64,000 bases of DNA. Source: an uncultured Thermococci archaeon (GTDB lineage: Archaea; CAYQAE01; CAYVLA01). Made by a program: the position numbers and the translations under genes. The notes below the pieces were generated by a model. That model ran no database searches. It was not told where the DNA came from and worked only from the letters and a program-made list of their open reading frames with translations. Within the stretch, counting starts at the first letter, position 1, and each line of letters begins with the position of its first letter. Positions 47,128 through 58,055 of the stretch are shown piece by piece. The stretch spans positions 11,112 to 75,111 of the forward strand of contig CAZJVP010000030.1 of the NCBI GenBank assembly GCA_964549615.1, given 5' to 3'.

Positions 47128-47508
47128 GGGTAGTCCCTTGGGGATCGCCTTTGGAGGTAAACGAGAAAGGCATGCTGATAAGTATAATCAGGCCCTTGCT
47201 CCAATCCGGCGTTCTCCTAGAGCCAAGGGGCATCGGGTCCTCCTGTCTCCCCCTAGACTTCGGCCCATTTCGGTTTCCCGGCGAAGAAGCTCGCATCCAT
47301 GCGAAGATGCACCGCAGGCACGCATGGTGCGACTCCATGCTGGGGTTGTTCAAACCAAAGGAGCATGCTGCACTCCGACGAGAACGTCCAACCGCGCGGC
47401 TTCCCCTCAGGCGGCAACCCTATCTGGGTCGCGCAATCAGACCAATTTTTATTCTCATTTTCTAGCGCACCGCCAGAACGACCGAGATCCCACGGAGGAG
47501 CAACAGCC

Positions 47509-50500
47509 TTGCCCAAGAGAGAGGATATCCACAAGATCCTCGTCATCGGATCCGGGCCGATTGTGATCGGACAAGCCGCCGAATAGGGATTTCCCTCGGA
47601 ATCGACTACTCCGGTTCACAGGCCTGCAGATCACTGCGCGAGGAGGGATACCATGTAGTCCTAGTGAACTCGAACCCAGCGACGATAATGACGGACACCG
47701 ACATGGCCGACGTTGTGTACATGGAACCGCTGGTGCCGGATATCGTCACGAAGATAATCGAAAAAGAGAGGCCCGACGGACTGCTGCCGACGATGGGCGG
47801 CCAGACCGGGCTAAACCTTGCGGCCCAGCTCGGGATGCTGGGCGTGCTGGAGAAGTACGACGTCGAGCTTCTGGGAACGCCGCTTGAGACGATCCAAGCA
47901 GCGGAGGACCGAGACAAGTTCAGGGCGTTGATGCTGGAGATAAACGAGGCGATACCGAGGAGCCGCGCGGTGGCCACCGTGGAGGAGGCCGTCTTCACGG
48001 CACAAGAGATCGGGTACCCTGTGATCGTGCGTCCCGCCTACACGCTCGGCGGAACCGGAGGGGGCATGGCCTATAATGAGACCGAGCTGCGGAAGATAGT
48101 GGATCGCGGCCTGCGCTCAAGCATAGTCAACCAGGTTCTCGTCGAACAGTCGGTGATCGGCTGGCAGGAGATAGAGTACGAAGTCATGCGCGACGCCGCC
48201 GACAACTGCAACATAGTGTGCTCCATGGAGAACGTCGATCCCATGGGCATACACACCGGCGACAGCATCGTCGTCGCGCCCGTTCAGACGCTGAGCGACC
48301 CGGATCATCAGAAGCTTAGGACGGCCTCCATCAAGATAATCCGGGCGCTGAAGATCCAGGGCGGTTGCAACATACAATTCGCAATGAACAAGGACACCGG
48401 GGAGTACTACGTCATCGAGGTCAACCCCAGGGTCTCCAGAAGTTCCGCCCTGGCCTCCAAGGCAACAGGTTACCCGATAGCAAGGATCGCCGCGAAGATT
48501 GCGGTGGGGATGACCCTTGACGAGATACCAAACAGGGTCACTCGCACGACGCCGGCCAGTTTCGAGCCGGCACTGGACTACATAGCGGTGAAGATCCCCA
48601 GGTGGCCGTTCGACAAGTTCCGCACCGCCGAGCGCCAGATCGGGACCCAAATGAAGGGAACGGGCGAGGTCATGAGCCTGGCGCGGACCTTCGAGGAGGC
48701 CTTCCAGAAAGCGATAAGAAGTCTGGACATCGGCAGGGCCGGCTTCGGCTGCGAGGCAAAGCAGGCCAACTTCGCCAAGGCGACGGAAGAGGAGCTTCTT
48801 GAGGAGCTGGCACGGCCGACGGATCAGAGGATCTTCTACATCCACGAGGCACTGCGGAGGGGATACTCGCCTGAGAGGATCTACCAGCTGACCAAGATCG
48901 ACAGGTGGTTCCTGTACAAGCTCAAGAACCTTCTGCAGATCGAAAGGAGCTTGGTCCGACAGTCAGGAAAGAACACGATCTCACGGTCTCTGCTTCTCCG
49001 ATCCAAACGGGCTGGCTTCTCAGACGCGCAGATTGCCTATGCCTTGGGCAAACGCGAGGACGAGGTCAGGAAGATGAGGAAGGAGAAGGGCGTACTACCA
49101 TCCTACAAGATGGTTGATACCTGTGCGGCCGAGTTCGAGGCCAAGACGCCCTACTACTACTCGACGTACGAACCGAACTCAGACAAGGCCCTGATGACGA
49201 CCGAAAGCCCCAAGAAGAAGGTCCTCATCATCGGCGGCGGACCGATAAGGATAGGCCAGGGCATAGAGTTCGACTACTGCACCGTCCACGCCGTGACCAC
49301 GCTGAAGGAGGAGGGACTGGAGGCAATAGTCATCAACAACAATCCTGAAACGGTCTCCACCGATTTCGACATCTCGGACAAGCTCTTCTTCGAGCCGCTC
49401 ACATTTGAGGACGTCATGAACGTAGTTGACCTGGAGAAGCCCTGGGGGGTGATCGTCCAGTTCGGCGGCCAGACCCCCATAAACCTCGCCTCAAGGCTCG
49501 CGAAGGCGGGAGTCAACATCCTAGGCACGCCGGCCGAAAGCATTGACAGGGCCGAGGACCGCAGGTCGTTCACGAAGCTCCTAAGCAAGCTGAAGATCCC
49601 TCAAGCACCGTACGGCACGGCCATGGATCGCAAGGGCGCTCTCAGGGTCGCCCGGAGGATCGGGTTCCCCGTCCTGGTCAGGCCAAGCTTCGTCTTGGGC
49701 GGACGAGCGATGGAAATAGTCCACGACGAAGCGGAACTCAAAGAGTATGTGGACATAGCAGTATCCGTGTCGCCCGAGCACCCCATACTCATTGACAGAT
49801 TCCTAGACAACGCGATCGAGCTGGACGTAGACGCCGTTGCCGACGGACGGGATGTCTTCATAGGCGCGATCATGGAGCACATAGAACAGGCAGGCGTCCA
49901 CTCGGGCGACGCGGCAATGGTCATCCCAACGTGCTCGTTGGACAAGGAGACCATCGCCACGGTCGAGGAGTACACGAAGGCAATTGCCCTGGAGCTAAAG
50001 GTCGTCGGCCTGATTAACGTACAATACGCGGTGAGGAACGGGGTGGTCTATGTGCTGGAAGCAAACCCCAGGGCGTCCAGAACGATACCCTACGTGGCAA
50101 AGACGATGGGGATCCCGCTCGCCAAGATCGCGACCAAGTTGATGGTGGGCCATACGCTGAGGGAGCTTGGCCTAGTCGGCCGCCGGGAGATCAAACACTT
50201 CTCTATCAAGGAATCTGTCTTCCCCTTCATCAAGCTCCCGGGAGTGGATCCCAAGTTAGGGCCCGAGATGAAGTCGACCGGCGAGGTCATGGGGATCGAT
50301 GATGACTTCGGCCTGGCGTTCTTCAAATCGCAGGTCGCGGCCGGCATGGCTCTTCCGACGTCGGGCAGGGTGCTGATCTCGGTCAAGAAGGAGGACTTCG
50401 CCGAGATCCCGGAGATCGCCAAGAAGTTCCACGAGCTTGGATTCGAGCTTTTGGCGACCGACGGCACGGCCGCAGCGATCCAGGCGAAGTACCCCAACAT

Positions 50501-50786
50501 ACCAATCAGGGTCGTTCGCAAGATATCCGAAGGGAGCACCGAGATACTAGAGATGATGTGGAGGCGCGAGATCGACATGATCATAAACACGCCGACCAAG
50601 GGCGGCAGTGCCTTCAGGGATGGCTACAAAATCAGACGCCAAAGCGTCGACCTGTGCATCCCGTACGTGACCACCCTGGCCGGAGCTCGCGCCTCGGTTA
50701 GTGCCATCGAGAAGACCAAGAAAGGGGCTATCCATGTCGAGTCTCTGGCATCCTACCTGAAGGGGGTCCAGACCGTAGCGACCTAG
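47509..50786 (+). CDS. carB: Carbamoyl-phosphate synthase large subunit, two exons (47509-47584 and 47602-50786; 1086 aa after splicing)
   Basis: GGAGG Shine-Dalgarno, then [27 protein letters not shown]. After removing 17 nt it continues [32 protein letters not shown] into the 47664-50786 ORF, with both ATP-grasp halves and the MGS domain. Confidence 0.93.
47585..47601 (+). other. Predicted 17-nt bulge-helix-bulge (BHB) mRNA intron AGGGATTTCCCTCGGAA
   Basis: Central helix CCGA/TCGG, 3-nt bulges AT^A and AA^T, intron stem GGG/CCC with ATTT loop, outer helix GCCG/CGAC (one mismatch). Excision gives GAA TTC GAC TAC. Confidence 0.85.
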
Positions 50787-57931: not shown

Positions 57932-58015
57932 GCGGGGGTACCTGAGCCGGTCAAAAGGGCTGGACTTAAGATCCAGTGGCAAAGGCCTGCGTGGGTTCGA
58001 ACCCCACCCCCCGCA
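57932..58015 (+). tRNA. tRNA-Leu (anticodon TAA), intron-less
   Basis: Acceptor stem GCGGGGG/CCCCCGC plus discriminator A, anticodon arm CTGGA-CTTAAGA-TCCAG, long variable arm, GTGGG-TTCGAAC-CCCAC T arm. Confidence 0.96.
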
Positions 58016-58055
58016 CCTCTTTGGAACCCGCGCATCTGGATCTGCGTCGAGCGGG

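Follow-up and report, generated by a model that had tools for sequence, protein, structure and literature searches.

In archaea, the documented case of tRNA-type splicing in a messenger RNA (mRNA) is that of cbf5, whose pre-mRNA carries an intron with a motif of the bulge-helix-bulge (BHB) type in Desulfurococcales and Sulfolobales (Watanabe 2002, as cited there; Yokobori 2009, PMC2738675). In the accessible part of PMC2738675, cbf5 is given as the only pre-mRNA with confirmed splicing, others being merely predicted. The accessible part of PMC7714728 names it as the one reported case and adds an intron in a 5′ untranslated region (5′UTR) of Haloferax, while the corresponding parts of PMC3082918 and PMC4839502 treat rRNA or tRNA introns only. 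Here we describe a further candidate, located in the single carB gene of an archaeal genome and contained in a 64,000-nt stretch of DNA (in the following, the window; coordinates refer to the whole window and count from its first letter). A 17-nt insert splits the Phe codon behind its first base in the motif GQAAE-F-DYSG and is very probably a BHB intron of the tRNA type, whose splicing is predicted. A first-pass annotation of the window had proposed this reading and had named cbf5 as the documented mRNA precedent, in agreement with the accessible text of PMC2738675 and PMC7714728. No paper on a carB intron was found in the literature searched, with subscription journals lying outside that search.

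The carB insert resembles the EndA-cut cbf5 intron in its shortness, its position within a protein-coding frame, and the BHB-type motif at its junctions, as well as in its patchy distribution among relatives with lineage-specific loss (PMC2738675, accessible part). The two differ in the host gene, carB belonging to core metabolism, and in the lineages concerned. Moreover, the carB motif is strictly canonical, whereas most cbf5 structures are described in the accessible text of PMC2738675 as unconventional or relaxed, and splicing was demonstrated experimentally for cbf5 but is predicted from sequence for carB. Like the intron in the 5′UTR of HVO_1309 from Haloferax volcanii (Schwarz 2020, PMC7714728, accessible part), the carB intron would make an mRNA, outside tRNA and rRNA, a substrate of the tRNA splicing endonuclease; the HVO_1309 intron lies in an untranslated leader and breaks no frame, whereas that of carB does. 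With archaeal tRNA introns it shares the size class (introns of 15-23 nt are predicted in 12 tRNA genes here), the motif, the cut rule, and the enzymes. Unlike these, it sits in a messenger, its helices consist of coding sequence, and the structural constraint falls on synonymous sites.

The interrupted carB gene and its predicted fold

The gene is divided as follows:

47509..47584, plus strand: carB exon 1, with a TTG start, 25 codons, and the first base of the Phe codon
47585..47601, plus strand: BHB intron of 17 nt, AGGGAUUUCCCUCGGAA, found in DNA contigs from runs X1, X2, and X3
47602..50786, plus strand: carB exon 2, comprising the Phe codon's remaining two bases, 1060 codons, and the stop, identified by its Pfam domains

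The first-pass annotation had described a frame broken by this insert, a cut that repairs it, and a canonical BHB geometry around it, all of which the sequence and its translations bear out. From the TTG at 47509, the unspliced frame runs for 25 codons and ends at an in-frame TAG (47584-86), so that its product is a 25-residue peptide. The frame of exon 2 stays open from 47604 over 1060 residues, ending with the stop at 50786; its translation matches CPSase_L_D2, CPSase_L_D1, CPSase_L_D3, and MGS, i.e. all CarB domains in Pfam. Removal of the 17 nt at 47585-47601, with the cut after the second base of each bulge, joins GAA-UUC-GAC, which restores GQAAEFDYSGSQ (including EFDY) and full-length CarB; moving the cut by one base replaces Phe with Ile (E-I-D) or Tyr (E-Y-D). 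The paralogous motif in the second half of CarB, encoded in exon 2, is uninterrupted and serves as an internal control. The genome (104 contigs, 99.5% complete, 60% G+C) holds a single carB, the only other match being a 25%-identical ATP-grasp protein; carA is intact and located on a separate contig.

The RNA elements of the fold are:

47579..47599, plus strand: BHB core, with central helix 47579-82 / 47596-99, 5′ bulge 47583-85, inner helix 47586-88 / 47593-95, and loop 47589-92, supported by minimum free energy (MFE) folds and covariation in 13 distinct relatives
47600-02, plus strand: 3′ bulge of the BHB, directly after the core
47562..47578, plus strand: 5′ strand of the outer exon-exon stem, with a distal part (47562-71) and a proximal part (47574-75 and 47577-78), from the MFE fold of 47560-47620
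47603..47620, plus strand: 3′ strand of the outer exon-exon stem (47603-04, 47606-07, 47610-14, and 47616-20), from the MFE fold

The central helix pairs CCGA (47579-82) with UCGG (47596-99) over 4 bp and is flanked by two 3-nt bulges on opposite strands, AUA (47583-85) and AAU (47600-02). The inner hairpin reads GGG-AUUU-CCC (47586-95), and the outer helix, GCCG (47575-78) with CGAC (47603-06), forms three of four pairs with one C.A mismatch. Both flanking helices of the full motif (hBHBh′) are present, the outer one being extended by the exon-exon stem. In their MFE structure, the 61 nt from 47560 to 47620 adopt precisely this BHB, seated on a longer stem between the exons in which GUGAUCGGA forms pairs with UCCGGUUCAC (z = −2.25 at −20.8 kcal/mol, with 6 shuffles of 200 doing as well).

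A BHB-like shape is common in this genome, and the motif alone proves nothing. Scanning the 3.2 Mb for a 4-bp central helix with at most one G.U, at least three inner pairs, two outer pairs, and a length of 11-80 gave 44,703 matches, compared with 45,720 in a reversed control. The chance that one given cut pair fits the motif is about 1e-4, and among the cuts at the insert the fitting pair is the sole one that restores the conserved residues. Screening the motif matches for open-frame joining returned 1230 matches versus 1280 in a shifted-position control; since the frame of exon 2 remains open for 46 codons upstream, carB itself fails the filter, and the screen is thus uninformative on other introns.

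Upstream of exon 1, two candidate expression signals were read from the sequence:

47446..47453, plus strand: candidate TATA element for carB, an AT-rich TTTTTATT box about 56 nt upstream of the start codon
47494..47499, plus strand: GGAGGA, resembling a ribosome-binding motif, 9 nt upstream of the TTG start

No endonuclease gene adjoins carB, whose neighbours encode enolase, a QPRTase-like protein, PAP2, and GluRS. The same holds for the carB neighbourhoods of four further genomes (G001, G002, G007, and G053), with carA located upstream of carB in G007 and G053. PF14528, the sole LAGLIDADG family searched genome-wide, had no match in the genome.

Conservation of the intron among relatives

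The phylum is represented by five genomes in our collection. Two relatives have an insert at the same base. That of G001, from the same genus, measures 18 nt and is in frame but contains a TAG; that of G002, from the same family, measures 20 nt, differs in its loops, and has a longer inner helix. The G003 contig does not extend to the carB N-terminus, and in G004, from another family of the same class, carB is uninterrupted. Of the 28 archaeal carB loci whose N-terminus was readable, five were interrupted and 23 were not. A CarB protein search of genome contigs returned at least 80 loci, from unrelated bacteria and archaea.

Metagenome contigs were scanned with a degenerate pattern for an interrupted IGQAAE...DYSG, yielding 41 interrupted stretches (L187-L227), 32 of them distinct. 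Ten of the distinct variants have the intron in the same place, after the first base of the codon (phase 1), with lengths of 18-21 nt and an exon 2 that is 66-92% identical to that of the window. A further 21, from other lineages with the GQAAE motif, have the cut one base upstream (phase 0) and inserts of 17-33 nt. Cutting after the second bulge base restored the motif in 31 of the 32 distinct variants. L189, together with one identical locus, has a 35-nt insert for which no cut restores the motif.

The 13 distinct phase-1 sequences were assembled into an alignment (A2). Here, 94.5% of the cells are paired, versus 26-50% when the partner is slid by one to three columns, and 12 cells are changed on both sides, a number reached in none of 500 shuffles, with the reservation that the sequences share ancestry and that shuffle and covariation counts overstate their independence. 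Three of the four inner-helix pairs show compensatory changes, and the outer-stem pairs are invariant or nearly so. The second pair of the central helix is C-G in ten sequences and U-A in three; on the exon side this is a synonymous change of an Ala codon, on the other side a change within the intron. As the three sequences with U-A are relatives, a single event may account for them.

Exon 1 and its start codon are found at the same place, with 25 codons, in all 13 sequences. In pairwise comparisons among the three genomes of the family, these 25 codons differ by 7-8 synonymous versus 1-4 non-synonymous changes (the start codon being counted among the latter). Directly before the intron, six codons (18 nt, 47566-47583) are identical in all three, while exon 1 further upstream is full of synonymous differences; the exon sequence at 47566-47583 and 47602-47614 appears to be constrained at the RNA level. 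Exon 2 is open over 1054-1060 codons in the three genomes, with 356-405 synonymous versus 212-247 non-synonymous codon differences. As judged from these differences, both exons are under purifying selection and the gene is not decaying. Insert lengths of 17, 18, and 20 nt, together with 20-26 nt in the ammonia oxidisers described below, span all three frame classes; only excision yields one and the same product.

A sister intron in ammonia-oxidising archaea

Ammonia-oxidising archaea are a group with cultured members. In a second phylum, of which 401 genomes were sampled, one AmoA-bearing family has carB in 57 of 57 genomes, interrupted in 33 and uninterrupted in 24; a second ammonia-oxidiser family contributed two genomes with an interrupted gene. 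The interrupted loci are L031, L032, and L035-L067 (the carB N-termini of G007, G053, G429, and others). Archaeal AmoA was present in all four genomes tested (three from the first family, one from the second), and close protein matches bear the names Nitrosotenuis, Nitrosarchaeum, Nitrosopumilus, and Nitrososphaeraceae. Presence of the insert is patchy even within genera, e.g. five of 24 genomes in g30. Its length is 21 nt in 19 genomes, 22 in nine, 20 in five, and 23 and 26 in one each.

By the BHB rule, the cut in these genes would be GAR|...|UUY, one base upstream of that in the window, with a central helix GGCG/CGYY. Among 23 distinct ammonia-oxidiser sequences (alignment A1), 94.5% of the cells are paired and four of five inner pairs are compensatory. 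Under a strict parse, a frame-restoring cut was obtained in 34 of 38 interrupted loci, the four failures each having one central-helix mismatch.

Comparison of the two kinds of alleles revealed flanking synonymous sites that are fixed where the intron is present: (i) ATCGGA occurs in 35/35 interrupted versus 1/24 uninterrupted alleles, (ii) GGCG in 35/35 versus 1/24, (iii) TCCGG in 34/35 versus 0/24, and (iv) GACTAC in 35/35 versus 0/24. This looks like selection on the structure of the pre-mRNA, because the fixed sites form the exon-exon stem in the predicted folds.

When 401 genomes drawn from 192 families across the domain were searched, a pattern allowing inserts of 7-37 nt matched only the lineage of the window and the ammonia oxidisers (three and six genomes, respectively); the reversed-pattern control gave no match, and longer inserts or other codon choices are missed by this pattern.

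Public gene calls of interrupted carB genes either read the insert in the wrong frame (e.g. ...DRYFDYSGSQ) or start downstream at MKSVLINPN (P0009, P0023, P0102, P0012, and P0015). Annotated CarB N-termini in these lineages are thus wrong. When the 150 residues that open exon 2 of G007 were searched against a protein database, no fragment exceeded 91% identity; matches with a contiguous junction resemble intron-less relatives and so provide no evidence of spliced transcripts.

Splicing enzymes, alternative explanations, and significance

Both enzymes that the first-pass annotation had invoked for splicing, EndA and the ligase RtcB, are encoded in the genome:

C88 L001:1456-2637 and C90 L002:1195-2406, minus strand each: two EndA paralogs, PF01974
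630..1937 (C30:11741-13048), plus strand: rtcB, RNA-splicing ligase, intact, covering PF01139 positions 1-426 with 607 bits and no stops

The EndA paralogs have 393 and 403 aa and match PF01974 at 99, 66.9, and 43.4 bits. They are unusually long, the first with two stretches of the catalytic domain. Of 47 tRNA genes, 28 were flagged by ARAGORN as intron-bearing, the intron being 15-23 nt long in 12 of these. Several of the flagged introns are at non-canonical positions, and some exceed 1 kb; the latter are doubtful and may be false or hold genes. The tRNA-Leu(UAA) gene at 57932-58017 has no predicted intron. The genome's own cbf5 gene carries no interruption and matches TIGR00425 positions 7-322 continuously and free of stops.

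Since the window stems from a metagenome-assembled genome in 104 contigs, the insert might be an assembly or sequencing artefact, a refutation that the first-pass annotation had itself put forward. It was, however, found in DNA contigs of three studies: (i) X1, a 35-kb contig with zero differences, likely the source of the window; (ii) X2, a 151-nt contig (47575-47725, record 10) with zero differences and only 10 nt to the left of the insert; and (iii) X3, a 239-nt contig (47532-47770, record 16) with no gaps and six differences, including a T>C in the hairpin loop at 47592. Length variants at the same base, moreover, are present in related genomes and in metagenome contigs, and the probability of an artefact appears negligible. 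The break in the frame at the DNA level would also fit a carB that is decaying as a pseudogene, with carbamoyl phosphate or its products obtained from elsewhere. An intact second carB combined with decay of this copy had likewise been named as fatal to the proposal, but this carB is the sole copy and has no further stops in 1060 codons, purifying selection acts on both exons, and carA is intact; the same constraint is seen in three genomes, and the interruption recurs in different genera, with no fewer than 10 other distinct variants. We regard decay as highly improbable.

Two other explanations dispense with splicing and keep the gene functional. CarB might be translated from the internal GTG at 47664, giving 1040 aa, with the 25-codon piece as a leftover or an upstream open reading frame (ORF). 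This GTG is the first start codon in the frame of exon 2, and public calls for interrupted ammonia-oxidiser genes similarly start downstream or in the wrong frame (P0012, P0015, P0009, and P0023). The resulting protein would, however, be devoid of the conserved glycine loop, the start codon and peptide of exon 1 are kept with mostly synonymous change in 13 of 13 distinct sequences, and neither the BHB shape nor its covariation would be accounted for, which makes an internal start improbable. Alternatively, ribosomes might pass the insert by recoding, either by bypassing as in phage T4 gene 60 or by frameshifting. Indeed, the stop codon right after the Glu codon, followed by a hairpin, is reminiscent of the gene 60 take-off site. 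Yet the sole downstream GAA (47599-601) would land ribosomes in the wrong frame with the Phe lost. Given insert lengths in all frame classes, no single shift works, and those versions that are in frame carry stops (one TAG in G001, one or two TAA in ammonia-oxidiser rows). What is conserved is the BHB and not matched codons, and recoding seems very improbable.

Several observations weigh against a spliced BHB intron. The 32-nt core takes the expected fold but is no stabler than its shuffles (z = −0.41; 62 of 200 as good), and the shared ancestry of the aligned sequences tempers the covariation counts. Imperfect motifs occur: G001 has an unremarkable fold (z = −0.42) and an A.G mismatch in the central helix, where three of 35 ammonia-oxidiser sequences have G.A, and these four are the loci in which the strict parse failed to give the correct cut (34 of 38 found). 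In three divergent phase-1 variants the inner helix is shifted by one base. The single RNA run, whose small share (0.05) is not taken as a sign of expression or habitat, covers only 47739-47984, derives from a relative with 97% similarity, and leaves the junction uncovered. In addition, transcription in archaea is coupled to translation, and with the intron 76 nt into the ORF, splicing would have to outrun the ribosomes.

The observed geometry, the reality of the insert in DNA, its conservation with compensatory changes, purifying selection, the single copy, and the presence of both enzymes nevertheless argue for the BHB intron as by far the most probable explanation. We infer cleavage, ligation, and translation of the spliced form as follows. 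The exon-exon stem of the folded pre-mRNA would present the canonical helix-bulge-helix-bulge-helix to EndA, which would cut after the second base of each 3-nt bulge, i.e. at 47584/85 and 47601/02. RtcB would then ligate the exons to GAA-UUC-GAC, encoding a CarB of about 1086 residues, and the intron would be released, probably as a small circle. Transcripts left unspliced would yield the 25-residue peptide only. A genuine, conserved BHB intron thus appears to reside in a core metabolic gene, its splicing being predicted.

Possibly, BHB introns have landed repeatedly at the carB motif GQAxE/FDYSG in different archaeal phyla, with phase 1 seen in this hot-spring lineage and phase 0 in ammonia oxidisers as well as further lineages, and the intron, once in place, is kept as a splicing control point, a reading that we offer tentatively and consider rather unlikely. 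If it were true, the output of CarB, and hence the synthesis of pyrimidines and arginine, would hinge on the activity of EndA/RtcB or on how the exon-exon stem folds, and the fixed synonymous sites would mark a regulatory RNA structure, beyond a tolerated parasite.

As gene callers truncate or mis-frame the interrupted carB, metabolic reconstructions may wrongly infer a loss of pyrimidine or arginine synthesis. Protein genes besides cbf5 probably need tRNA-type splicing, and a second protein gene with an EndA intron, belonging to core metabolism and found in several phyla, would mean that tRNA-type splicing of messengers is no one-off.

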